Source of the DNA: Alphaproteobacteria bacterium
Lineage (GTDB): Bacteria > Pseudomonadota > Alphaproteobacteria > UBA2136 > UBA6156
Length of the DNA stretch: 55,023 bases
Assembly: GCA_049297695.1 (NCBI GenBank)
Contig: JBAQUT010000022.1
Location: 1 to 55,023 of the forward strand
Reading direction: 5' to 3'
Shown here: positions 10,610 through 47,496 of the stretch, piece after piece
Layout: each line of letters starts with the position of its first letter
Position numbering within the stretch: the first letter of the stretch is position 1
Notes under the pieces: model-generated
Database searches by the model: none
Told to the model about the DNA's origin: nothing
Seen by the model: the letters and a program-made list of their open reading frames with translations, nothing else
Position numbers and translations under genes: made by a program

Positions 10610-10649
10610 CCCCCAACTGCATAAACATTCAGCAACGGAGGAACTCCCC

Positions 10650-11066
10650 ATGGCCATCGAACAAACCCTGAGCATTATCAAGCCCGACGCCGTCGCTAAA
10701 AACGTGGTGGGCGGCATTATTTCACGCTTTGAAGCCGCTGGCCTGAAGGTGAAAGAAGCCCGCATGATGCAGCTGACCGAAACCCAAGCTAAAATGTTTT
10801 ACGCCGAGCACGCCGCCCGCCCGTTTTACGGCGAATTGGTAGCCTTTATGACCAGCGGCCCTTGCATGCCTTTGGTGTTGGAAGGAGAAGGCGCGATTTT
10901 GAAAAACCGTGAGCTGATGGGCGCCACCAACCCCACCAAGGCCGAAGCTGGTACCATCCGCGCCGATTTTGCGATGCCTTGCACCGACCTTTCCGCCAAC
11001 GCCGTGCACGGTAGCGACAGCGCTGAAAGTGCGGTGCGTGAAATTGCCTTCTTTTTTGGGAAGTAA
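10650..11066 (+). CDS. ndk: Nucleoside diphosphate kinase
   Basis: [15 protein letters not shown] start with a [17 protein letters not shown] active-site His motif. The ORF-track N-terminal extension is rejected. Confidence 0.95.
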
Positions 11067-14964: not shown

Positions 14965-14988
14965 GCAGTGTATCAAAGGAGAAAACCC

Positions 14989-15687
14989 ATGAGCCATTGG
15001 ACACACATCTCGAAAGATGAAGCTTATGTAATAGATAGAATTATTTATAAACTCGGCGATATGGCCACTGCGGATGATATTGTTGACGAATTAAACAGGC
15101 AGAACGTGGCTATACGCCCAGAGTTTGTTAGATTGCATGTAGAAGATACTCATGCGATGGGAAAATTGATTCGTTTGGATGGAACCATTGCGGACGCTTA
15201 TATACGCTCTAAAAAGTTTGTAGGTCCGTACGCAGAAATAGATGAGGCACTGGCAGATAAGGTAAAAACCCTTGTTCGAGAAGCTGGAGTTGAAGCAGAT
15301 AACAAATATTTAATGCCACGACTTCTTCCAAAAACGCATTTCTATGATCGAGCGAATGATGCGCTTATGCATTATTCAATTGATGTGAGGGAAGGCTATG
15401 GTGCAACGGAAAAATATGAAAAACCAGTTCGGCAAGTAATAGATTCTCTGTTTAGAGAGGGTTCGTTACGCATTGGAGGTTGTGAAAACCCTGTTAATAA
15501 TGATAGTTTTTTTGTAAACTGGCATGGCTCTAATAAAAAACATAAAATTTTCTTTTATGTACGTGAAGATGAGCTTATTTTACCTCAGAATGTTGCCAAA
15601 TATCGGGATGCCAAAACAGCCGCTGAGATTGCCCGCAGAGATGAATTAACAAAGGGGTGGGATAAAGATATGGGCGATAGAGGTTAA
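14989..15687 (+). CDS. Hypothetical winged-helix-like protein (islet ORFan family member)
   Basis: ATG at 14989 with an AAAGGAG RBS. Shares ...TADDIVDEL...LIRLDGT... and a C-terminal ...KIFFYVREDELILPQNVAKYR block with the next gene. Confidence 0.6.
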   Translation: MSHWTHISKDEAYVIDRIIYKLGDMATADDIVDELNRQNVAIRPEFVRLHVEDTHAMGKLIRLDGTIADAYIRSKKFVGPYAEIDEALADKVKTLVREAGVEADNKYLMPRLLPKTHFYDRANDALMHYSIDVREGYGATEKYEKPVRQVIDSLFREGSLRIGGCENPVNNDSFFVNWHGSNKKHKIFFYVREDELILPQNVAKYRDAKTAAEIARRDELTKGWDKDMGDRG

Positions 15688-15757
15688 GGATTTAGAAAAA
15701 TTTAGGTTAGAGACTCTTTATTTTTATAGGAATAAATGACGTAAAAGGAGAAACAGA

Positions 15758-16645
15758 ATGATCCAAAGCCATGAACAAGTTATTTTAGAAGCTTTAAAAA
15801 CTGCCTGCGAACAAGCGGAGCGTTTTGGTGCATATCCTGATGTTGTATTAAAAAAATCGCTTTTGAATTTAAAAAACTTGGAAGGTATGACAGGCTTGCG
15901 TCTTTATGAAGTAACAACGGCTTTGGCTGGCCTTGTGAGAAAAGACCGAGTTGTAGGTACCGACCGAGGCGAATATGGCCTTGTTAAAACTTTTGAATGG
16001 GTTGCGCGTTACAACGCCCATGAAGCGATTCGGTGTGCGATTGTTGAGCGAGGATGCTGTGCGACGGTGGATGAACTTGCGGCCGATTCGAACGTTGTAA
16101 AAGCTGGTTGGAATAAACAAGAGCTGTCCAGCTACGTAACATCGCAATTCCAGCCTATGGCATTTGTGCGTTTGGATGGGAACATGGAACAAGGATTCTA
16201 CCCAGTAAATTTTGAGAATTGGGATCGTGAAGAATTAGGCCCCAACCAACCCGATGAACGCATGTTTCATGAAATTCATGCTGCCGTGCGTTTTTCAGAA
16301 TGCGATGCAGGTTTTGATGCCCTCCGACTGATTCTTTTGCGAGATAGTTACCGTACAGACGGTATAAGCTCGAGAATAGCCTACAATGTGATGCGTCCAA
16401 CAGAGCAGGCAAGAGTTCGGAAAGAAATATTTGATGAAACAATTGCGTACATGATTAATACGGGTGTTATCAAATGGGCGGCCTACGAAATTTCACCGAA
16501 TCAAGGTTTAATATTGAGAGCTTTCCTTGGTGACGATTCTCGACCCAATCATCCCGTATTTATGTACGTTGCTAAAGATGGGAAGAAGCTGCCAGATATG
16601 GTGGCAGAGCGGAGAGCCAGCGACTCCAAAGGCATGGGTCGTTAA
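15758..16645 (+). CDS. Hypothetical multi-winged-helix-like protein, tandem paralog of 14989..15687
   Basis: 295 aa. AAAGGAG RBS. ...TVDELAAD...FVRLDGN... and ...PVFMYVAKDGKKLPDMVAERR align by eye with the preceding gene. Confidence 0.6.
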   Translation: MIQSHEQVILEALKTACEQAERFGAYPDVVLKKSLLNLKNLEGMTGLRLYEVTTALAGLVRKDRVVGTDRGEYGLVKTFEWVARYNAHEAIRCAIVERGCCATVDELAADSNVVKAGWNKQELSSYVTSQFQPMAFVRLDGNMEQGFYPVNFENWDREELGPNQPDERMFHEIHAAVRFSECDAGFDALRLILLRDSYRTDGISSRIAYNVMRPTEQARVRKEIFDETIAYMINTGVIKWAAYEISPNQGLILRAFLGDDSRPNHPVFMYVAKDGKKLPDMVAERRASDSKGMGR

Positions 16646-32418: not shown

Positions 32419-33246
32419 ATGAGCATTACCCAAATCCCCCATGTGAAGCATGTTATTGCTGTGGCCAGCGGCAAAGGTGGCGTGGGCAAAAGCACCACGG
32501 CGGTAAACCTTGCAGTGGCGTTGGCAGCCAGCGGCAAGCGCGTAGGGCTGTTGGATGCCGACGTGTACGGCCCCAGCCAGCCCCGTATGTTGGGCGTGGC
32601 GGATAAAGAACCCATGAGCGATGGCAAAGAAATTGAGCCCGTGATTGGCCATGGCGTGCGGATGATGAGCATGGGCTTTATGGTGGACGAACACACCCCC
32701 ATGGTATGGCGCGGCCCCATGGTGCAAAGCGCCCTGATGCAAATGTTGCGGCAAGTACGTTGGGGCACGGCCAAGGCACCATTGGATGTGCTGGTGGTAG
32801 ACATGCCCCCCGGCACAGGCGATACCCAGCTGACCATGGTGCAGCAAGTGGCCCTCAGCGGCGCCGTGATTGTGAGCACTCCGCAAGATATTGCCCTGAT
32901 TGACGCCCGCAAGGGGTTAGAGATGTTCAAAAAAACCAACGTACCCATTTTGGGCATTGTGGAGAACATGAGCATGTTTTGTTGCCCCCATTGCGGGAAG
33001 GATACGCCCATTTTCAGCGAAGGCGGCGCCCGCGCTATGGCGAAGGAACTGGGGTACGAACTGTTGGCCGAAGTACCGTTGGATGTGCAAATCCGTACCA
33101 ATACCGACGAGGGGAAACCCTTGGTGCTCAGCGCGCCTGATAGCAAGGCTGCGGCTATTTACCGTGATTTGGCAACGAACGTATGGGAAGCCCTGAAAGT
33201 TGCCGAAGCCCGCAAGCCTGGGCCGGTGAAGATTGTGATTGAGTAA
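32419..33246 (+). CDS. apbC: Fe-S cluster carrier ATPase, Mrp/ApbC/NBP35 family
   Basis: Deviant Walker A ASGKGGVGKSTT and the CPHCG cluster-binding motif. Confidence 0.93.
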   Translation: MSITQIPHVKHVIAVASGKGGVGKSTTAVNLAVALAASGKRVGLLDADVYGPSQPRMLGVADKEPMSDGKEIEPVIGHGVRMMSMGFMVDEHTPMVWRGPMVQSALMQMLRQVRWGTAKAPLDVLVVDMPPGTGDTQLTMVQQVALSGAVIVSTPQDIALIDARKGLEMFKKTNVPILGIVENMSMFCCPHCGKDTPIFSEGGARAMAKELGYELLAEVPLDVQIRTNTDEGKPLVLSAPDSKAAAIYRDLATNVWEALKVAEARKPGPVKIVIE

Positions 33247-33247
33247 G

Positions 33248-33276
33248 TTGACAGTATACGTTGTGTGTGGTTGAAT
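33248..33276 (+). promoter_or_regulatory. Putative promoter with TTGACA abutting GTATAC, 1 nt after the apbC stop
   Basis: TAA 33244-33246. TTGACA 33248-33253. GTATAC 33254-33259. TTGAAT 33271-33276 after a 17-nt spacer. Confidence 0.4.
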
Positions 33277-33309
33277 GAGGAAGATTATTCAATTTTACGG
33301 AGGATTTTC

Positions 33310-33750
33310 ATGAGCGTTTGGGCAAATGATAAAGGTATTGTTGATGTGGATGATATGAGAGAGAGGTCATTAGAGTACTCTCATCAACAAGGGTTTTGGG
33401 ATTATGCTGGTAGCAATGATTTATCGCAACAACGTTTTAATCAGATTGTTGATATGATTAGAGTGCATATGCATGCTCAGGATCAAACTTGTAATCCTTT
33501 GATTGTGAGAGATGTAACACATTGGTCCAGAAGTAAAAATCAAAGAGATAAAGCTTACTTATCAGGGATGATAGATGGCCTACAAAGTAAGCTCAAAGGA
33601 GTAACGGTTTCTGTTGTTAAACAGCAGAAAAAAACAACATTTCTCCGCCGTCCTTACACGAAAGACTTTATGGTCTTAACTCCTGATCAAAAACAAATTG
33701 AAGAACGTCCCAGTGTCAAATACGAAGTTGAGGGGCATATTTTAGGTTAA
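33310..33750 (+). CDS. Hypothetical protein (AT-richer ORFan)
   Basis: ATG at 33310 with a GGAGGA RBS. 146 aa. No recognisable motif. Confidence 0.55.
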   Translation: MSVWANDKGIVDVDDMRERSLEYSHQQGFWDYAGSNDLSQQRFNQIVDMIRVHMHAQDQTCNPLIVRDVTHWSRSKNQRDKAYLSGMIDGLQSKLKGVTVSVVKQQKKTTFLRRPYTKDFMVLTPDQKQIEERPSVKYEVEGHILG

Positions 33751-34043
33751 TCGTTTAACCCAAATTCACCGTTATGCTTATCAACACGGGCGCTAGCATT
33801 AAGGCCGATTATATGTCCGGGGGTTGTTTGAAAATACATTGCCAACTGCTCATCTGATACGCTCATCAATGGGCGTAGGTGACGCATAAGTGTGGCTGGA
33901 ATGGTGGATGGAGTTTCAAGAAATGCTTTGATGTCATCCAGTGTTACAGGTTTTAAAAGTTCGGGTGTGCAACGGCAAATAGCTTGAAAGCGGGGGCTTT
34001 GTACAAGGTCGTTCATCATGGAGAGTTGAACTTCGGGTGTCAT
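33747..34043 (-). CDS. Hypothetical small protein (AT-richer), last gene of the ppiD transcription unit
   Basis: 98 aa from the ATG at 34043, which overlaps the upstream stop as ATGA. Its stop overlaps the convergent gene's stop (TTAA at 33747-33750). Confidence 0.5.
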   Translation of the reverse strand: MTPEVQLSMMNDLVQSPRFQAICRCTPELLKPVTLDDIKAFLETPSTIPATLMRHLRPLMSVSDEQLAMYFQTTPGHIIGLNASARVDKHNGEFGLND

Positions 34044-39245: not shown

Positions 39246-39683
39246 ATGAAAGTACCCCGCACCCTCCGTGCTGCTGCCGCCGCCACATGGCTGGCGGGGG
39301 CGGGGGGTATGGCCAAAGCCGCCCAATCAACGACTGTTTTGAACCCGTACGATTATTTTACCTGCCACGCAACATCGGGCGAGCTTTTAGCCCGTTGGGC
39401 GGGCGACGCCACGCTGATGATTGAAATACCCAGTTATAAAATTGTGTGGTCATGCGGAACCGCCACCCACAGCGCCGATGACGTTCAGCAAGTGGCCGTT
39501 GGCTGGGTGGATGATCGTAACGTGTATTGGTGCATCAGCGCAGGGCCGGATTTCAAGCCCAAACTGTTCGTATCCCCGCGTAACCCGCATGCACGGGAAC
39601 AAGCTGACGATATATTGTGGGATAACGAGCCCGTTGTGTTCTCAGTCCCCGATAATGAGAATATATGCACTCCAATAGGTTAG
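39246..39683 (+). CDS. Secreted hypothetical protein
   Basis: Signal-peptide-like MKVPRTLRAAAAATWLAGAGGMAKAAQ. Four Cys. Its stop overlaps the convergent hepT stop. Confidence 0.5.
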   Translation: MKVPRTLRAAAAATWLAGAGGMAKAAQSTTVLNPYDYFTCHATSGELLARWAGDATLMIEIPSYKIVWSCGTATHSADDVQQVAVGWVDDRNVYWCISAGPDFKPKLFVSPRNPHAREQADDILWDNEPVVFSVPDNENICTPIG

Positions 39684-40021
39684 AGATTCACTGATTGCAT
39701 CTCTTGTGTGGCTTTTTCCAGAGATTTAAGGTGGTGTTGAATAACATCCCACACGACCGAAGGAGCAATTTTATGGTACTCGTGCCGCAGCATGTTCCCC
39801 ATACCTCGGATGGATTTCCAAGGAATGTGGGGTTGAGATGCTAAAACGTTGTCGGGTATATGTTTAACGGCTTCGGATATGGTCAGCAAAGCCCGTTCGA
39901 CCGCACGCCGCACCAAGCCATCAGACGTAAATGTTTGTAGGGTATGTGCATGGGTGGATATACGGATAAACTCAATCTCGGTTAGAATCTCGGAGAACAA
40001 AGGGGCAAGCATACGGGGCAT
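39680..40021 (-). CDS. hepT: HEPN-domain (DUF86) toxin HepT
   Basis: 113 aa. R-x4-H motif in MLRHEYHKI. TAATG 1-nt overlap with the upstream mntA gene. Confidence 0.85.
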   Translation of the reverse strand: MPRMLAPLFSEILTEIEFIRISTHAHTLQTFTSDGLVRRAVERALLTISEAVKHIPDNVLASQPHIPWKSIRGMGNMLRHEYHKIAPSVVWDVIQHHLKSLEKATQEMQSVNL

Positions 40022-40317
40022 TACAGCACGTGGATGGCCGAAGCCTCAATGTCGTGTTTCAGCAAGGGGTGTAGGCTTTCCCGGGTTGTAATATCTATGG
40101 GAACATGAAGTTCGTCTTCCAAAAGGTCTTTCAATCCTGCAAGTTCAATCAGAGAGAAAGGGGTGTTGGGGGTGGTGTCGATGAAGATATCCACATCGCT
40201 CCCAGCATGGGCTTCGTTACGGGCGGTAGAACCGAAAAGGTACAAACCCGCAACCCCCATAGCCCGCAAACGGGAAGCGAGGGCATTGAGTTGGAGGATA
40301 AGGGGCTCACGTTGCAT
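40021..40317 (-). CDS. mntA: Minimal nucleotidyltransferase antitoxin MntA
   Basis: 98 aa. GSTARNEAHAGSDVDIF (GSxxR...DxD) nucleotidyltransferase motif. Confidence 0.88.
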   Translation of the reverse strand: MQREPLILQLNALASRLRAMGVAGLYLFGSTARNEAHAGSDVDIFIDTTPNTPFSLIELAGLKDLLEDELHVPIDITTRESLHPLLKHDIEASAIHVL

Positions 40318-40341: not shown

Positions 40342-41307
40342 TTACTTCAACACCTTCAAATACGCCTTCACCACTGGCCCGGCGCGGGTAAGTTGCACAA
40401 TGCCATGAATATCGGATTCCAGCTGGCGGCGCAGCACGGTGAGGGCGCTTTCGGCGATATCGCCGTTCAGCATCACGCGGTTGATCACGGCGTCCAGCGC
40501 GGTATCCGGGCTGTTGGCGTGGATGGTGGCCATGCTGCCTTCGTGCCCCGTGTTAATGGCGGAACAAAAGGCGAAGGCGTTTTCTTTCCGGATTTCGCCC
40601 AGCAAAATGCGGTCGGGGCGCATCCGAAGGCAGGCGTTGAGAATCTCGCGGATTTCTTTCCCGCTGGGGTCGCGGTTGGCACCACCGAAAATCAGCGGGG
40701 CGCAGTTGCGGTGGGGAACATCCAGCTCCGGCACGTCTTCCATGGTAATCAGGCGTTCGTGCAGCGGGATGTGCTTAAGCGCCGCATTCATGAAGCTGGT
40801 TTTCCCAGTGCTGGTACCGCCGGAAATAAGCAACGTGTGCTTGGTTTGGATAAGGTCGATAATCGCCCGCCGCGTTTCATCCGGCATCTCAAAGCTATCC
40901 AGCGTATAATCTTTTCGGTGGGCAATCCGCACCGTCATGGTGAAGTGCCGCGTGGTGTGGTGGCCCGCCACAATTTGTACGCGGTGGCCGCCGGGCATTT
41001 TGCAGGCCAAAATGGGGTGCTGGGGGGTGAATATCTCGCCGCTCATGTTGGCCAGCATGCGGGCGCCGTCTTCCAGTTGCTCGGTGGTCAGGTCGGGGGC
41101 GGGCACCCATTTCCAGCTACCATCGGCAAACTCGTAGCCCACTTCGCCGGGGCGGTTGATGACCAGTTCACGGATGCCCGGCTCTTCAAAATACTTAAGG
41201 AGCGGCCCCAAAAACCGTGTTTCCACCTTGTTCAGGCCGTATTTTTCTCCCAAGGCCTCCAGTTCGGGCGTCAGGCTTTTTCCAGATTGTTGGATGAGGT
41301 TGGACAT
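40342..41307 (-). CDS. VirB11/TrbB-family type IV secretion-type ATPase (orphan)
   Basis: 321 aa from the ATG at 41307. Walker A SGGTSTGKTS, Asp box ITMEDVPEL, Walker B DRILLGEIR, His box TGHEGSMATIHAN. No other T4SS genes in the window. Confidence 0.85.
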   Translation of the reverse strand: MSNLIQQSGKSLTPELEALGEKYGLNKVETRFLGPLLKYFEEPGIRELVINRPGEVGYEFADGSWKWVPAPDLTTEQLEDGARMLANMSGEIFTPQHPILACKMPGGHRVQIVAGHHTTRHFTMTVRIAHRKDYTLDSFEMPDETRRAIIDLIQTKHTLLISGGTSTGKTSFMNAALKHIPLHERLITMEDVPELDVPHRNCAPLIFGGANRDPSGKEIREILNACLRMRPDRILLGEIRKENAFAFCSAINTGHEGSMATIHANSPDTALDAVINRVMLNGDIAESALTVLRRQLESDIHGIVQLTRAGPVVKAYLKVLK

Positions 41308-41359
41308 GGTAGAAAGAGTAGTAAGTTTAACCGTTAAAACAAGCCGAGGAGCTTTCATC

Positions 41360-41786: not shown

Positions 41787-42420
41787 ACAACGCCTTGTCC
41801 ACATCCGCCATGCTGGCTGTACACCCCAATACCGCAAGGCTGGTCACAGGCTTGGCCAACCCGCAGGGCACAATGCGGTTGTAAGCCGTCAGGTCGGGGT
41901 TCACGTTCAGCGCAATGCCATGGTACGCAACCCATTTCCGCACTCGCACGCCGATGGCCGCAATCTTGGCGAAATCACGTTCCTGTAACCCTGTAACCCT
42001 GTCATCCTGTAACCCTGTAACCCTGTCATCCTGTAACCCTGCCTTCACCCACACCCCCACATCATCTGTCGCAAACCCTTCCACCCCCAGCTCCCTCAAA
42101 CTGGCAATCAACCACTGCTGAAGATTGGCAATGTGCTCCCTCAAATCCCGTGTTTCCCGTAAATCTTTAATAACATACACCACCCGCTGCCCCGGCCCAT
42201 GGTAGGTGGTTTTGCCGCCGCGCCCGGTGGGGATGACGGGGATACCCCCCACATCCAGCAACTCGGAGGGCATCGCCCCCGTGCCCGTGGTAAAACAAGG
42301 CGGGTGCTCCACAAAATACGCGCGTTCCCGCCCGCCCGCTAACACCTCGGCTACCGCCGCCTCCTGCAAGGCTAAAGCTTCTGCGTAGGGGGTCAAGGAG
42401 GGGAGGGGCTTGATGTCCAT
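41752..42420 (-). CDS. lipB: Octanoyltransferase LipB carrying an in-frame repeat insertion
   Basis: RGGKTTYHGPGQ and KIAAIGVRVRKWVAYHG motifs. The segment GLQDDRVTGLQDDRVTGLQ is encoded by the tandem repeat at 41982-42045. Confidence 0.92.
   Translation of the reverse strand: MDIKPLPSLTPYAEALALQEAAVAEVLAGGRERAYFVEHPPCFTTGTGAMPSELLDVGGIPVIPTGRGGKTTYHGPGQRVVYVIKDLRETRDLREHIANLQQWLIASLRELGVEGFATDDVGVWVKAGLQDDRVTGLQDDRVTGLQERDFAKIAAIGVRVRKWVAYHGIALNVNPDLTAYNRIVPCGLAKPVTSLAVLGCTASMADVDKALFNNLGRLQGPQ
41982..42045. repeat. Tandem repeat inside lipB: eight 8-nt units forming a 24-nt period x about 2.7
   Basis: Units CCTGTAAC, CCTGTAAC, CCTGTCAT, CCTGTAAC, CCTGTAAC, CCTGTCAT, CCTGTAAC, CCTGCCTT, read directly from 41982. 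Confidence 0.9.
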
Positions 42421-42444: not shown

Positions 42445-42729
42445 ATGAAATACGCACCCCGCCGCACCACAGCCTTAACAACCGCAGCTGTTATGCTTGT
42501 AGGCCTTACGACAAACGTTATGGCAAGGCCAACGCAACCTCCTAACAAACTCAAAGTACCAGTAACTATCTCAACAAACGCCTTTAAATTACCAATTGGC
42601 GCTAACGAACCTCGTAACCCCGATTTAGCCCCAGATGAGAAAGCAGATGGTATCACACTAGATGATGGTACTGTTTTTGCACCATCTTCAGTGTTGGAAA
42701 AGCTCCAGAAAGGGCAGGAGGGTCGTTAA
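42445..42729 (+). CDS. Small secreted hypothetical protein
   Basis: Signal-peptide-like MKYAPRRTTALTTAAVMLVGLTTNVMA. 94 aa. No clear RBS. Confidence 0.4.
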   Translation: MKYAPRRTTALTTAAVMLVGLTTNVMARPTQPPNKLKVPVTISTNAFKLPIGANEPRNPDLAPDEKADGITLDDGTVFAPSSVLEKLQKGQEGR

Positions 42730-42772
42730 CCCTCTTTACCCGCCCGACAAACCACGCTATACAACCCCCCGT

Positions 42773-42857
42773 GCGGTCATGGCGAAATTGGTAGACGCAT
42801 CAGCTTGAGGGGCTGACGGGTAAAACCATGGAAGTTCGAGTCTTCTTGACCGCACCA
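42773..42857 (+). tRNA. tRNA-Leu (anticodon GAG), CCA encoded
   Basis: Acceptor GCGGTCA/TGACCGC. Anticodon arm TCAGC-TTGAGGG-GCTGA. Long variable arm. T-arm GGAAG-TTCGAGT-CTTCT. Folded by hand. Confidence 0.92.
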
Positions 42858-42972
42858 ATCTTTTGAAATCACACCCGTATTTGCATTTCCGCCACAGGCT
42901 GGTGGCTTATATGTCAGTTCGGTTGTTGCACCCCTCGGGCGGGTCTCCATAATACATGAAAGGAGAATCGTC

Positions 42973-43809
42973 ATGCGTATGTTGAAAGTATCTCTGTTAG
43001 GTGCCACCTGCTTGATGAGCGGAATGGCAGCAGTTCATGCATTGGAAACAAGCGCCGTGAACAACAACATGGCCGAGGCGATGATCTCCGAGCAGCGCAC
43101 CAGCACCCTGTTTACCATTTTGCAAACCGCCTTTAACGCCTTAACGGCCCGTGTTGGGGCGGTAGAAACCCACGTTGGCCTGTTGCAAGTAACGGTGGAT
43201 AACCTGAGCACCCGCCTGACCACGGCCGAAACCGATATTGCCACCTTGAAAACTGATGTGAACAGCCTAAAAGCTACCGATCAATATTTGTTGGCCGAAG
43301 TAGGGGCTTTAAAAACCCGAATGGATTCTGCCGAAGGTCAAATCGCTTCATTATGGACGTACATTCAATACCTGATAGATCGTGACAATGCCCAACAAGC
43401 CCAGATCAACGATTTGTATGCGCGTGTGAGTGATTTGCAAAATCAAATCAACGCTTTACGTGCCCGTATTGAAGCTTTGGAAGCTCGGACAAATGGATTG
43501 CCAACGGATTGCAATGCGGGTGGAGTCTTGATTTTTAACGGTTCAATATGGACATGTACAAAAACTTATGCGGTCGCGAGCAATCTGTGTAATGGCTTAC
43601 GGTGCGAATCAGGTGCTCAATCAGGTGTAGCTACGTTAAATAAAATATGTACGATATTAGGCAAAACAACGTATCACTCTACGCCGGCAGGTGGTACGGG
43701 TGGTGCTGGTTGTAATGGTTGCAGTTGGGGTGCTTGGACAGGAAGTTCATGGTCATCTTTTTCTAGTTGTAATGGTTGTGTGCCATTACTTCGAGTTACA
43801 TGTTATTAA
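42973..43809 (+). CDS. Secreted coiled-coil protein with a 10-Cys C-terminal domain
   Basis: AAAGGAG RBS. Signal peptide. Heptad-like Leu/Ala/Gln region about 130 aa long. C-terminal about 100 aa shared with the next gene, ending LLRVTCY. Confidence 0.65.
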   Translation: MRMLKVSLLGATCLMSGMAAVHALETSAVNNNMAEAMISEQRTSTLFTILQTAFNALTARVGAVETHVGLLQVTVDNLSTRLTTAETDIATLKTDVNSLKATDQYLLAEVGALKTRMDSAEGQIASLWTYIQYLIDRDNAQQAQINDLYARVSDLQNQINALRARIEALEARTNGLPTDCNAGGVLIFNGSIWTCTKTYAVASNLCNGLRCESGAQSGVATLNKICTILGKTTYHSTPAGGTGGAGCNGCSWGAWTGSSWSSFSSCNGCVPLLRVTCY

Positions 43810-43833
43810 TTTAAGAAATAAAGGGTAGGGGTT

Positions 43834-44409
43834 ATGTACTATAAATTTTTACTATGCCTCCTGTGGTTGTACCCACTAAGCTTGGCTCATTCGCTTGAAG
43901 CTACAGCCCATGTTAATCCATCTCAAGCTGTGAACGAAGGCCTTTCTATGAAAGTAGATGCCTTGCACACAGCTACTATGGCGGTGGTGAACAGCATTCT
44001 GCATTGTAATAACATTGGGAAAATGTATGTCTCCGATCCTTCGGTTCCAGGGAAAGATGTGAATGGGTGTGTCGATATAGATGGAGGGTTGCCGAATCCA
44101 GCCACGGAATGCGATATCGGTTCTGTCGCTATTGCCGATGGTACGGATTGGACATGCACACAAACACTTGCTGTTCCCAATACGTTGTGTGGTGGTTTGC
44201 GGTGCGAATCTGGCGCCCAATCAGGTGTAGGTACGTTAAATAAAGTCTGTCAATCGCTTGGTAAAAACAAATATTATTCAACTCCAGCTGGTGGTACAGG
44301 GAGTTCGGGTTGTGATGGATGCTCGTGGGGTACTTGGACGGGAAGCGCATGGACATCGTTCAACCATTGTAACGGCTGCAAGCCGTTGCTTCAGGTAACA
44401 TGTTATTAA
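43834..44409 (+). CDS. Secreted protein with the same 10-Cys C-terminal domain (paralog)
   Basis: Signal peptide MYYKFLLCLLWLYPLSLA. The C-terminal block ...WTCTQTLAVPNTLCGGLRCESGAQSGVGTLNKVC...CDGCSWGTWTGS...CNGCKPLLQVTCY aligns with 42973..43809. Confidence 0.65.
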   Translation: MYYKFLLCLLWLYPLSLAHSLEATAHVNPSQAVNEGLSMKVDALHTATMAVVNSILHCNNIGKMYVSDPSVPGKDVNGCVDIDGGLPNPATECDIGSVAIADGTDWTCTQTLAVPNTLCGGLRCESGAQSGVGTLNKVCQSLGKNKYYSTPAGGTGSSGCDGCSWGTWTGSAWTSFNHCNGCKPLLQVTCY

Positions 44410-44439
44410 TTTAACATAATATTCATTATGCGAACTTAT

Positions 44440-44460
44440 GAGCCGAAAGGCTCTGTTTCG
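44440..44460 (+). terminator. Short stem-loop between convergent genes
   Basis: GAGCC-GAAA-GGCTC followed by TGTTTCG. Only a 5-bp stem. Confidence 0.35.
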
Positions 44461-44462
44461 TT

Positions 44463-46418
44463 TTACCCCTCCAGATTTCCCATCCCCTCCCACCACCACA
44501 CCATGTTGGCGGCGGCCAGGGCGGTGTAGGTGCCGTCTATGTGGCCGTCGCAGGTGGCTTTCCAAAAAGCTTGCAGGGCGGGTTGATGAAAATGCTCCTT
44601 CGCAAACGCGCTGCCAAACAGCGCATCCTCCATCATCGCACTGCCCTTGCCCGTGGTAAGCCACTGGCGGATGGGTGCCCCAAAGCCCGCCTTACTGCGT
44701 GAGAGAACTTCGTGGGGCAGTCGAGTACTCACGGCACTCTTGAAAAACGCTTTAGGCGCCGTTTGGTGAAGGCTCGTCCAGCCACCGCCCGTCAGCTTGG
44801 CCGTAGGCGGTACATCGGCCATGAAATCTAGCAATCGGCGGTCGGTTAAGGGCACGCGACCTTCCACACCGGCCAGCATGGCGGCTTTGTCGTTGTAGTT
44901 CAGGTTGTGGTCGGGCAAAAAGCCAAACAGCTCAATGTACAGCAGGCGGTTTAACAAACTTTGGCCGTGGGATTCGTCTCGGGCGCTGGTTAAGGCATTA
45001 TTCCACGAGATGGCCACGCTGCGCTCGCCATGACGAAGGAGGCGCGCCGCATCTGGCTGGCTGTTGGTCGTAAACGCATGCAGCAAAAAGCGCTCGTCGT
45101 CGCCGCGCAACAGGTCGGCCAAGCGGGTGAGGCGGCGCGAGGTGGCCGCTCCACTCACCCGAGCGACCATTTTACATAATACAGAAATACCTTGGGAGAT
45201 TGCCGCGCTGCGCTCGCAATGACGATTGAGGGTTTCCCGCAACCGTGCCGTTTGGTGGCGCCGATACCCGCTGAATACGTCATCCCCCCCCGCACCGCCC
45301 AACAACACCTTGATACCATCCGCCTTGGCCCGTGCCGCAATATCCGGCACAACCAACGGTGCAGGGTCAGCGGTGGGCTCGTCCAGCATGAAGGGCAAGC
45401 TGGGCAACCGTTCCAGCAACGGCTCCATCTCCACCACCAAAGGTGTGAACGGCACCTTCAAATGCGTCGCCACGCTGGTGGCAAACGCCATATCGTCCTC
45501 AAAGCCTTCCGCGGCCATCCCCGCACCCTCAAAGCCGATGCAATACGTGTTGGAAGGCCTATTCCCCGTGGCCACCATGCTGGCCACAATGGCGCTGCTA
45601 TCCACACCTCCACTCAAAAACGCTCCCACGGGCACATCGCTGGTGCACTGCTCGGCCACCACGGCGTCCAGCAGTTTCAACAGGTGGGCGGGGGTTTTGG
45701 TGGTATCGTACTGGGGTTTTCCCTCCACCAACGGGGCTTGCGGCGGCATGTACCAGCGGTGGGTTTCGGTAGTCAGCACACCATCGTCAAACGCGGCCAG
45801 CATAAAGTGTCCGGGGCGGAGCTTTTTCACCCCGCTCAACATGGTGCGCTCGCCAGGCGTCCATAAAAAGGTGAGGTATTCGGCCATGGCGTGGGTGTCC
45901 AAACTCCAATCGGCCAACACGGGGCGCAAGGCTTTCAACTCGCTGGCAAAGGCCAAACCTTGGGGTGTTTCGGCGTAGTACAACGGTTTAATGCCTGCAT
46001 GGTCGCGCGCCACAAACAGCTGGCGCTCGTGCTTATCCCAAATGGCCAAGGCAAACATGCCTTCCAACCTCTCCAGCATGGCGGGGCCTTCCAAATCGAA
46101 CAACGGGGCCAGCACGGCGGTGTCCGAGTTTGGGTTAAACTTATATTTCGTATTCTTTTGAAGATATTCCACAATCTTCTTAAAGTTGTAAATCTCGCCA
46201 TTGAACACCACCACATACCGCCCGTCGGCACTTTCCATGGGCTGGCTGGCGGCGGTGGAGGTATCGATAATGCTCAACCGCCGGTGCACCAGCTGCATGC
46301 CAGCCGCCGCATCGCGCCACACGCCCGCTCCATCCGGCCCCCGGTGCGCCAACGCCGCCCCCAACGCCGTGGCGTGGGGTTTGGTGAAGGTTCCGAGTAA
46401 GCCTGCTATGCCGCACAT
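44463..46418 (-). CDS. asnB: Asparagine synthase (glutamine-hydrolysing) family amidotransferase
   Basis: MCGIAG Ntn-Cys start at 46418. PP-loop FLSGGVDSS. 651 aa. Confidence 0.9.
   Translation of the reverse strand: MCGIAGLLGTFTKPHATALGAALAHRGPDGAGVWRDAAAGMQLVHRRLSIIDTSTAASQPMESADGRYVVVFNGEIYNFKKIVEYLQKNTKYKFNPNSDTAVLAPLFDLEGPAMLERLEGMFALAIWDKHERQLFVARDHAGIKPLYYAETPQGLAFASELKALRPVLADWSLDTHAMAEYLTFLWTPGERTMLSGVKKLRPGHFMLAAFDDGVLTTETHRWYMPPQAPLVEGKPQYDTTKTPAHLLKLLDAVVAEQCTSDVPVGAFLSGGVDSSAIVASMVATGNRPSNTYCIGFEGAGMAAEGFEDDMAFATSVATHLKVPFTPLVVEMEPLLERLPSLPFMLDEPTADPAPLVVPDIAARAKADGIKVLLGGAGGDDVFSGYRRHQTARLRETLNRHCERSAAISQGISVLCKMVARVSGAATSRRLTRLADLLRGDDERFLLHAFTTNSQPDAARLLRHGERSVAISWNNALTSARDESHGQSLLNRLLYIELFGFLPDHNLNYNDKAAMLAGVEGRVPLTDRRLLDFMADVPPTAKLTGGGWTSLHQTAPKAFFKSAVSTRLPHEVLSRSKAGFGAPIRQWLTTGKGSAMMEDALFGSAFAKEHFHQPALQAFWKATCDGHIDGTYTALAAANMVWWWEGMGNLEG
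45004..45038. repeat. Copy 1 of an approximately 32-nt direct repeat inside asnB
   Basis: GAGATGGCCACGCTGCGCTCGCCATGACGA. Encodes RHGERSVAIS on the minus strand. Confidence 0.8.
45193..45228. repeat. Copy 2 of the approximately 32-nt direct repeat inside asnB
   Basis: GAGATTGCCGCGCTGCGCTCGCAATGACGA, exactly 189 nt (63 codons) from copy 1. Encodes RHCERSAAIS. Confidence 0.8.
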
Positions 46419-46444: not shown

Positions 46445-47113
46445 TTATTCCGCAGCAAGAGATGAGGATTGATGATACAAATCTTTGGCATTCTCAAATT
46501 CACGAGGCTCCCTGTTGGTAGCTGCCACAAGAATTTGTTGTACTTGATGTAATTCTTCTGGGTACAAACGATCCACCACCGCCCCTGTCAGAGATGAGGC
46601 TGAAGATGCCGCCAACAAGGCCTCTTCCGAATACGAATCAATGCGCCACAAACGAACACGCCCTACCGAGGTATCCACCGAAGAAATATGTTGAACGGGT
46701 GAGCTAATCGGGTCTTGCTTCAAAGGTGATTGTAAATACGATATCCTGTTTGTAGCAGGGTCGTAATAACCCGCCGCCAAAATAACCCGAAGTTGAGAGC
46801 CCTTATCAACGCATGTTTTCACCACGTCTCCGGGTTGGAATGCTGCCTGCGGGTTCTGGTATCTAAAAAGTGCTTGGAAATCACGGGCGATATCTTCGGA
46901 TTTCGGGTAAAATGCCGTCTGGTCATGGGGTCTGAAATCAGCCACGAAACCATGCTCAAGGGTTGCCAGCGATACATAAGGGTCTACGGGAACCGATAAA
47001 ACGCACCCATGCGTCATACGTTGGAAAAAACTGTTGCTGATAATGCAATGTGGCCGTGATGTTTCGTAGTTAACAACAAACATACCGCGTGGATAAGTAA
47101 TCATGTTGAGCAT
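46445..47113 (-). CDS. Hypothetical protein (AT-richer ORFan)
   Basis: 222-aa ORF. Upstream AT-rich spacer holds TATAAT and GTATAC (47131-47136). No recognisable motif. Confidence 0.55.
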   Translation of the reverse strand: MLNMITYPRGMFVVNYETSRPHCIISNSFFQRMTHGCVLSVPVDPYVSLATLEHGFVADFRPHDQTAFYPKSEDIARDFQALFRYQNPQAAFQPGDVVKTCVDKGSQLRVILAAGYYDPATNRISYLQSPLKQDPISSPVQHISSVDTSVGRVRLWRIDSYSEEALLAASSASSLTGAVVDRLYPEELHQVQQILVAATNREPREFENAKDLYHQSSSLAAE

Positions 47114-47187
47114 CCTATTATAATATTTTAGTATACTCTAAATATTCTAAATGTAAATGCTTCATACTTTAAATTTTCAACCAGTTG

Positions 47188-47496
47188 TTATTTTTCAAAA
47201 TCAGGTGGATGAGAAGGAAAGAGATGGGTAACATTTGTCCCCGTAGGTCGCATAACTACCTCAGGAAGATTCTCGGTTGAGAGGTTGGCTTTTTGCAAGG
47301 CTCCTTTTAAACATTTTAGGTAAGCATACGCAGTAACGAGAGAGACACCTTCATCACGCTCAATACGCATAAGAGATCCGCGAGACAAATATATACCGTC
47401 ATATACGTCTCTTTCCCGTAAACCTGAACAAACTCTCAAATCCCTAACCCCCGGGATAAAAGCCTTTGTTGGAGATGAAAGGTTGGTTCCGTTCAT
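47188..47496 (-). CDS. Xre-like helix-turn-helix protein (AT-richer)
   Basis: LRERDVYDGIYLSRGSLMRIERDEGVSLVTAYAYLKCL fits the Xre/Cro HTH pattern. The ATG overlaps the upstream oxidoreductase stop as ATGA. Confidence 0.55.
   Translation of the reverse strand: MNGTNLSSPTKAFIPGVRDLRVCSGLRERDVYDGIYLSRGSLMRIERDEGVSLVTAYAYLKCLKGALQKANLSTENLPEVVMRPTGTNVTHLFPSHPPDFEK

Follow-up and report, generated by a model that had tools for sequence, protein, structure and literature searches.

Class A scavenger receptors, which carry an SRCR head, and collectins and tetranectin, which carry a C-type lectin head, are built to one plan: after an N-terminal end comes an alpha-helical coiled coil as the stalk, and a head of ~100 amino acids (aa), stabilised by disulfides, forms the C-terminus. 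Here we describe two adjacent open reading frames (ORFs) that follow this plan, ORF1 and ORF2, in a stretch of 55,023 nucleotides (nt) from an Alphaproteobacteria bacterium (GenBank assembly GCA_049297695.1, contig JBAQUT010000022.1), hereafter termed the window. The likeness extends to the head, in which one helix carries a conserved cysteine (A..xC...G). In contrast to these eukaryotic receptors, however, the present family is bacterial and predicted to be Sec-exported; its cysteine spacing differs from that of SRCR and C-type lectin receptors, and no homology to them is detectable. We propose that ORF1 and ORF2 represent the long and the short type within a very rare, unclassified protein family, and that together they form a horizontally exchanged cassette encoding exported, disulfide-locked binding heads on stalks. 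This is the explanation that we favour, at somewhat less than even confidence.

Other described proteins share single elements of the design. The P22 tail needle gp26 and T4 fibritin have similarly long heptad-repeat shafts, and the stalk of ORF1 weakly matches the PHROG entries phrog_1219 (E 3e-7) and phrog_1056. These matches cover the coiled coil only, and the present family differs from phage fibres in its signal peptides and disulfide-type cysteines and in its absence from the phage genomes and viral contigs searched. Braun lipoprotein (Lpp) and secreted Lpp-like proteins such as licanantase (PMC4137666) are small exported coiled coils of the Gram-negative envelope, and in this respect they resemble the present family. 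The stalk also has a weak NCBIfam match to major outer membrane lipoprotein (NF011925, E 0.0014). Unlike Lpp, the present family has neither a lipobox nor a C-terminal lysine for attachment to peptidoglycan, its stalk is two to three times longer, and a cysteine-rich head is added. Classification as a bacterial lipoprotein was rejected, given that the ten aligned N-termini have no conserved cysteine at the cleavage site and carry Leu-Glu instead of [LVI][ASTVI][GAS]C. YadA-type trimeric autotransporter adhesins embody the stalk-and-head concept in Gram-negative bacteria; by comparison, the present proteins have no C-terminal beta-barrel anchor, no YadA head or stalk motifs and no such Pfam match, and their head is C-terminal, the opposite orientation. 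A literature search returned papers on trimeric autotransporters and Lpp-type proteins only.

Architecture of the two proteins

Both ORFs are present where the original prediction, made from the sequence of the window, had placed them. Their features are as follows.

42973..43809, + strand: ORF1, the long form, 278 aa, with AAGGAG 7 nt 5' of its ATG
42973..43041, + strand: predicted signal peptide of ORF1, residues 1-23 (...AVHA), from the -3/-1 rule; cleavage predicted before L24-E25
43042..43104, + strand: conserved mature N-terminus of ORF1 (LETSA...) and start of the family-wide helix, from the homologue alignment
43105..43491, + strand: coiled coil of ORF1, a single heptad register of ~128 residues with I/V at a and L at d
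43495..43806, + strand: head domain of ORF1, 104 aa, with cysteines 180, 195, 206, 211, 226, 247, 250, 266, 269 and 277
43834..44409, + strand: ORF2, the short form, 191 aa; ATG 43834 is the start that retains the signal peptide
43834..43893, + strand: predicted signal peptide of ORF2, residues 1-20 (...LAHS); cleavage predicted before L21-E22
43894..44070, + strand: N-terminal module of ORF2, comprising LEATA, a ~30-residue helix and a cysteine-closed hairpin (C58...GKMY..P...NGC79)
44086..44406, + strand: head domain of ORF2, 107 aa, with ten cysteines

The two proteins end in the same module of ~100 aa, as had been proposed: the C-terminal heads are identical at 72 of 107 positions (67%, E 1e-51), and all ten cysteines align. 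Gly, Ser, Thr, Asn and Trp are abundant in the head, which has few charges and contains a conserved aromatic stretch in which GCxxC is followed by ~4 residues, commonly aromatic, and then by W-x-G-x-x-W. At the DNA level the heads are 68.6% identical over their whole length, and 32 of the 72 codons with a conserved amino acid differ synonymously. By the Nei-Gojobori method, synonymous divergence (dS) is 1.45 and nonsynonymous divergence (dN) 0.25; the low ratio (dN/dS 0.17) shows that the head is a selected protein domain.

These values rule out the recent duplication or gene conversion that a near-identical DNA core had been taken to suggest. The duplication of ORF1 and ORF2 is old, and both architectures are themselves old and recur in other genomes. 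What survives of the near-identical core is a short patch, containing two exact runs of 13 nt (44218-44244) and 41 of 45 matches around them. Synonymous divergence is lowest at head codons 36-50, where the proportion of synonymous differences (pS) is 0.26; this dip may reflect an old conversion event over a short tract, or chance. The last 17 nt, ACATGTTATTAATTTAA, are also common to both genes (43798-43814, 44398-44414). As this identity extends 5 nt past the stop codons, the ancestral duplicated unit reached beyond the coding end.

Both proteins carry a predicted signal peptide, as do all eight full-length homologues (members of the family are cited below by the identifiers P0001 to P0010). 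Leu-Glu is invariant after the hydrophobic core in 10 of 10 aligned N-termini, and is followed by [ATVR][ST]A and an amphipathic helix. The residues at -3/-1 ahead of it (e.g. VHA, AHS, APA, VGA) fit cleavage by signal peptidase I directly before Leu-Glu, and Sec export with cleavage at this point is strongly indicated. The gene call for ORF2 in the public protein collection, P0001 (175 aa), begins at an internal TTG 16 codons late and so loses the signal peptide; the homologue alignment backs ATG 43834 as the start. Although the N-terminal parts of ORF1 and ORF2 had been considered unrelated, the common signal peptide, Leu-Glu and helix, which recur in every homologue, show that they are related.

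The homologues fall into the same two forms. In the short forms (P0002, P0003, P0005, P0010; 191-210 aa), the signal peptide is followed by LE[AT][ST]A, a helix, a cysteine-closed hairpin with the consensus C-x3-GKLY-x-P-x2-P-x2-DANGC, and the head. The N-terminal module of ORF2 is common to all four, and P0005 contains the hairpin twice. In the long forms (P0004, P0006, P0008; 281-292 aa), the order is signal peptide, LE.TA, helix, long coiled coil and head; P0004 combines the hairpin with the coiled coil. A second adjacent pair is present on contig L041, where the short form precedes the long form, opposite to the order in the window. This long form is 65-75% identical to P0004 in its N-terminal part, after which the contig ends. 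In ORF1, the heptad phase is unbroken from mature residue ~22 to ~150 (~128 residues, ~18 heptads) and includes 14 clean heptads, from VDNLSTR to IEALEAR, with I/V at a and L at d. The corresponding rod would measure ~19 nm (128 residues x 0.148 nm), compared with ~5 nm for the ~30-residue helix of the short form.

In a neighbour-joining tree of the heads, ORF1 groups with ORF2 (100% bootstrap), and the long P0006 and P0008 group with the short P0010 (96%). Head type therefore tracks lineage rather than stalk type. Two histories would give this pattern: exchange or homogenisation of heads between the long genes and the short ones, or a swap of stalks. In the lineage of the window such an event would be old, given a dS of 1.45.

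Occurrence of the family

The original prediction could not place the head in any family, and our searches bear this out. Profile searches of Pfam, NCBIfam, PHROGs and PADLOC gave no match to the head or to ORF2; the only matches, to entries such as SMC, tail needle, fibritin and Lpp, fell within the coiled coil of ORF1. Sequence searches of the PDB with profiles of two and ten sequences returned nothing meaningful for the head. The head domain is new to the databases searched.

The family is also real but extremely rare. It was not found by tblastn in a plasmid collection or in 50,697 phage genomes, no relative was found among the viral contigs of IMG/VR, and scans of metagenome and viral contigs with back-translated peptides gave no relatives. 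Word-index protein searches with ORF2 and with a ten-sequence head profile recovered only P0001, from the window itself, and one fragment. An exhaustive HMMER scan of 1.84 billion cluster representatives detected nine other proteins at E ≤ 1e-3, one of which (P0007) was rejected as a repetitive artefact. This leaves eight credible relatives, from eight other contig sets, and suggests a family of ~ten sequence clusters among 1.84 billion.

Cysteine pattern and predicted fold

Cysteines are lost from the head in pairs. C206 and C211 are absent together in P0004, P0005 and P0009, and C266 and C269 are absent together in P0006, P0008 and P0010. The number of cysteines is even in every mature protein (ten in ORF1, 12 in ORF2). 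Loss in pairs only, together with the even counts, points to disulfides and hence to an oxidising compartment, and a disulfide-bonded head is strongly indicated. We rejected a zinc-ribbon reading of the two CxxC motifs: three members have lost both cysteines of the second motif but retain the first, and all members are exported.

In models made with AlphaFold2, the helix and hairpin of ORF2 have predicted local distance difference test scores (pLDDT) of 70-77. A Foldseek search placed EGF and SRCR domains at the top of its list, with probabilities ≤0.04; the SRCR matches, obtained with a poor model (head pLDDT <50), have E 6-9 and probabilities ≤0.03. The head-helix motif A..xC...G resembles the SRCR helix. 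On the basis of this motif, the stalk-plus-head plan and the weak Foldseek matches, we tested SRCR and C-type lectin domains as candidate families, and rejected both at the level of sequence. Alignment with hhalign to seven CD163 SRCR domains gave a probability of 0.8% over 22 columns around the helix, and no Pfam SRCR match is found in ten members. Likewise, alignment to seven C-type lectin domains gave a probability of 0.1%, and there is no Pfam Lectin_C match.

Genomic context and mobility

The features that surround the two genes are listed here.

42702..42706, no strand: left breakpoint of the block shared with contig L049, 67 nt 5' of the tRNA; ≤85% identity to its left, 99.7% to its right
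42773..42857, + strand: tRNA-Leu, anticodon GAG, inside the near-identical block shared with L049 and at the synteny break in relatives
42889..42905, + strand: terminator-like hairpin 3' of the tRNA, a consensus match only
44440..44463, + strand: terminator-like hairpin GAGCCGAAAGGCTC with a T-rich tail, 31 nt past the ORF2 stop

The tRNA-Leu(GAG) gene thus lies just upstream, as stated in the original prediction, and ORF1 starts 115 nt downstream of it. The GAGCCGAAAGGCTC hairpin is located between ORF2 and a convergent asnB-like gene. With a gap of 24 nt between the genes and a hairpin on both sides, ORF1 and ORF2 look like a two-gene unit bounded by terminator-like structures. On the left, this cassette is flanked by ppiD, pyrG, a HepT/MNT toxin-antitoxin pair, a VirB11/T2SSE-type ATPase gene and lipB. 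On the right, the opposite strand carries the asparagine-synthase-like gene and the sugar-nucleotide genes of a surface-polysaccharide cluster. The window is chromosomal. Its LipB has a best match of 50% identity among 185,579 species genomes, to uncultured Alphaproteobacteria; the species is absent from the genome collection, and the organism is poorly sampled.

Several lines of evidence agree with the proposal that foreign DNA has entered beside the tRNA. The cassette has a GC content of 47% and a GC content at third codon positions (GC3) of 0.41-0.44, compared with 0.69-0.73 in lipB, asnB, pyrG, the ATPase gene and others. The AT-richer segment is therefore real, but it begins at ~42430, upstream of the tRNA and within a small ORF (42445..42729), rather than ~100 nt after the tRNA. 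Homologues in other genomes have a GC content like that of their hosts. Relatives closer than those in the genome collection came from a larger protein collection. In one of them, L054 (LipB 59% identical), the order secG-pyrG-ATPase-lipB-small ORF-tRNA-Leu(gag) is kept; the tRNA is followed by HD_3, DUF5076, CvpA and Mla genes, and no family member is present within 9 kilobases (kb). L052 (LipB 71%) has the same synteny, up to a contig end 130 nt past the tRNA.

A protein identical to ORF1 is found in three further samples. Two of these contigs are identical to the window, and the third, L049, is 99.67% identical to it over 42700-44497 but only 85% identical in lipB. All four differences to the right of the breakpoint (42877, 42900, 42958, 43826) are in spacers, leaving 0 substitutions in 1413 coding nt; if differences were spread uniformly, this would have a probability of (293/1791)^4, or ~7e-4. 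The simplest reading of these comparisons is that diverged lineages recently exchanged the tRNA-Leu-ORF1-ORF2 block laterally, and that purifying selection has acted as well. L049 stops at 44497, and the right border of the shared block lies beyond the comparison.

tRNA genes are common integration sites. Of the marks of a tRNA-targeted island, foreign composition and presence/absence polymorphism are found here, while an integrase and a repeat of the tRNA 3' end are not. As had been noted, no integrase is present, none being found among the long ORFs scanned from ~21 to 51 kb of the window. A repeat of the tRNA-Leu 3' end, the candidate attachment (att) site, is also lacking: its 28 nt occur once in the window even when three mismatches are allowed, with 10.6 kb downstream covered. 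No flanking repeats were found around the cassette in the window, and no tRNA gene is found near the homologue loci elsewhere. Given the lack of an integrase and att repeat, exchange looks like homologous replacement rather than classical integration of an island. Taken as a whole, these comparisons establish a cassette that is evidently real and under selection, foreign in composition, and polymorphic in its presence at this site.

Proposed function

On the explanation that we favour, the Sec pathway would export both proteins, and signal peptidase would cut just before the invariant Leu-Glu, as suggested by the sequence and its conservation in homologues. As the pairwise loss of cysteines and their even counts suggest, the head of ~100 residues would be locked in the periplasm by five disulfides, two of them local (C206-C211, C266-C269), and the short form would have a sixth disulfide in its N-terminal hairpin. 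The ~18 heptads of the long form would assemble into a presumed parallel coiled-coil rod of ~19 nm, and the short form would offer the same N-terminal end and a closely matched head on a helix of ~5 nm. The proteins would thereby form coiled-coil oligomers that display heads at their C-terminal end, with the Leu-Glu N-terminus as a probable docking point. The head would be the business end. It would most likely bind a ligand, for which a glycan is one candidate, either in the envelope or beyond the cell; the long and short forms may then present one binding specificity at two distances. The adhesin or receptor-binding role suggested in the original prediction is plausible, since an 18-heptad coiled coil with a disulfide-rich head fits such an anatomy. 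Of the roles considered, we rank adhesin- or lectin-like binding first and mobile envelope protection second; antagonism comes third, a spacer role in the envelope fourth and a phage fibre last.

Several observations weigh against this explanation. The AlphaFold2 models are poor: mean pLDDT was 38 for the head alone with a two-sequence alignment and, with ten sequences, 52 for mature ORF2, in which the head scored <50. A Foldseek search of the PDB with the pLDDT-52 model returned no match at E <0.7 and nothing significant. The covariation of cysteines amounts to two or three independent events in a family of ~ten members, and a heptad pattern with I/V at a and L at d cannot discriminate a dimer from a trimer. 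The proteins may stay periplasmic, as no way of crossing the outer membrane is apparent. A scan around the cassette found no sigma-70-type promoter. Finally, L049 was assembled from a metagenome and may be a chimeric contig; yet its cassette has its own single-nucleotide polymorphisms, and its allele differs from that of the window.

A bolder version of the same explanation can be formulated, which we regard as quite unlikely. The head would be a new disulfide-knotted binding fold, and the family would constitute a 'reach-and-bind' class of proteins: the Leu-Glu end would dock to an envelope partner, matched heads would be held at ~5 and ~19 nm, and heads would be exchanged between the long and short genes within a lineage. 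Such a modular, horizontally traded recognition system might serve, for example, in masking receptors against phages or in cell-cell or host attachment.

An unlikely but credible alternative is that the genes are envelope-located protection genes of mobile elements (of the moron or surface-exclusion type), which, from the periplasm or the cell surface, would block phage adsorption or the entry of DNA or conjugative elements by binding an incoming component or masking its receptor. Homologues do occur in variable or defence-type neighbourhoods: one lies beside a type I-C CRISPR-Cas locus, one among genes for a transposase, H-NS, a caspase-like protease and a DUF4011 helicase, and one next to a tyrosine integrase and transposase fragments. 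The foreign composition and lateral exchange of the window cassette, and its position adjoining a surface-polysaccharide gene cluster, are also in line with such a role. However, PADLOC gave only SMC-like coiled-coil matches (LmuB, JetC, DruC) to the long forms and none to the short forms or the head, and the family occurs in no phage or plasmid record searched. One homologue is in a core context, between ftsZ and rpsF. Furthermore, no neighbour is conserved across loci: when the ORFs lying up to 3 kb from each family member were compared all-versus-all, no conserved partner gene emerged, and the sole cross-locus match, a HepT-like toxin gene, is incidental.

Somewhat less probable than either of these is a role as secreted antagonistic proteins resembling bacteriocins or toxins. 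In that case the disulfide-rich head would be released from the cell to bind a receptor or to kill, with the long and short forms as two versions of a single weapon. In favour of this role are the small size, export, disulfide stabilisation, rarity, patchy distribution, horizontal exchange and strong purifying selection of the proteins. Solitary genes without fixed partners recall the lectin-like bacteriocins in particular. Lectin-like bacteriocins need no immunity gene. Against this role, the neighbourhood contains neither an immunity gene nor an export ABC transporter or a lysis gene, there is no similarity to the toxin and bacteriocin families of Pfam or NCBIfam, and a coiled-coil stalk of 19 nm is atypical of small bacteriocins.

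We consider it improbable that the proteins are native components of envelope architecture, e.g. periplasmic spacers or tethers of two lengths whose unusual composition arose by happenstance. Rods of ~19 nm and ~5 nm have dimensions comparable to those of the periplasm, and the homologue at ftsZ/rpsF and the host-like GC content of homologues elsewhere would agree with a native origin. This is countered by the extreme rarity of the family, by its absence from the syntenic relative L054, and by the lack of a lipobox, peptidoglycan-binding domain or membrane anchor; the composition and lateral exchange of the window cassette likewise argue for accessory status. Least probable is a phage or tailocin fibre, i.e. 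a trimeric coiled-coil shaft with a receptor-binding knob left at the tRNA by a degraded prophage: in its favour are the weak matches of the coiled coil to the PHROG entries for tail needle and fibritin, a Peptidase_S74 tail-fibre-like gene 5 kb from P0004 and the frequent use of tRNA genes for integration, but the PHROG matches are limited to the coiled coil and lacking in short forms, no match exists in 50,697 phage genomes or IMG/VR, no other phage gene, integrase or att repeat lies near the window cassette, and the Sec signal peptide of every member and the disulfide-type cysteine pattern, which misfit virion assembly in the cytoplasm, place it last.

Other features of the region

The DNA to the left of the tRNA has features of its own. 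lipB (- strand) contains a perfect 24-nt tandem repeat at 41981-42041, with 2.5 copies and 100% matches, which encodes GLQDDRVT GLQDDRVT GLQ. The L049 allele is different and shorter here, which indicates that this LipB loop is length-variable between lineages. Between lipB and the tRNA lies the small ORF at 42445-42729 (+ strand), encoding 94 aa with a signal-peptide-like N-terminus (GC3 0.37). Its product is ~40% identical to the L049 counterpart between flanks that are 85-100% identical, and the final KGQEGR is conserved; it is predicted to be a fast-evolving exported peptide. Further left, a HepT-like RNase toxin (PF01934, E 4e-24) and an MNT-type nucleotidyltransferase (PF01909, E 2e-15) are encoded at 39680-40317 (- strand), with pyrG on one side and the ATPase gene on the other; in L052 and L054, different small genes occupy this position. 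The ATPase gene (40342-41334, - strand) encodes an orphan member of the VirB11/T2SSE family (PF00437, E 1e-27) with backbone GC content, and no other secretion-system genes were seen nearby. L052 and L054 have it at the corresponding position (pyrG ... ATPase - lipB), so it is a core gene of the clade and not a component of a mobile type IV system.

To the right, an ORF at 46445..47113 (- strand; 222 aa, GC3 0.44) has no match in Pfam, PADLOC or elsewhere. It is followed by a 300-nt stretch with a GC content of 0.33-0.35 inside the GC-rich polysaccharide cluster, and the region 46445-47300 looks like another foreign patch. The GC content is also low at 15001-16000 (0.39) and 33001-34000 (0.44), compared with 0.56 for the window; the ORFs in these patches (14968..15687, 15758..16645 and 33265..33750) have no Pfam match. 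Among the homologue loci, L045 encodes a predicted lipoprotein of 139 aa (10627-11046, - strand; signal peptide end LALANC) that is convergent with P0005 and overlaps it by 7 nt. The same arrangement occurs on a second contig, and no counterpart is present at the other family loci.

Significance

If ORF1 and ORF2 are indeed exported binding heads on stalks of two lengths, they would represent a new disulfide-rich domain family that is described in no database. Should the head instead prove to be a diverged form of a known lectin or toxin fold, the cassette would be an ordinary accessory gene pair. The modular logic of the family would be unusual, in that a single N-terminal end is combined with two stalk lengths and with a head that stays alike in both the long and the short gene of one lineage. 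The locus would also capture lateral exchange between lineages that are 15% apart in a flanking core gene. The structure and ligand of the head would extend the set of binding modules known from the bacterial envelope, and would reveal the selective force that keeps this rare cassette free of coding changes.

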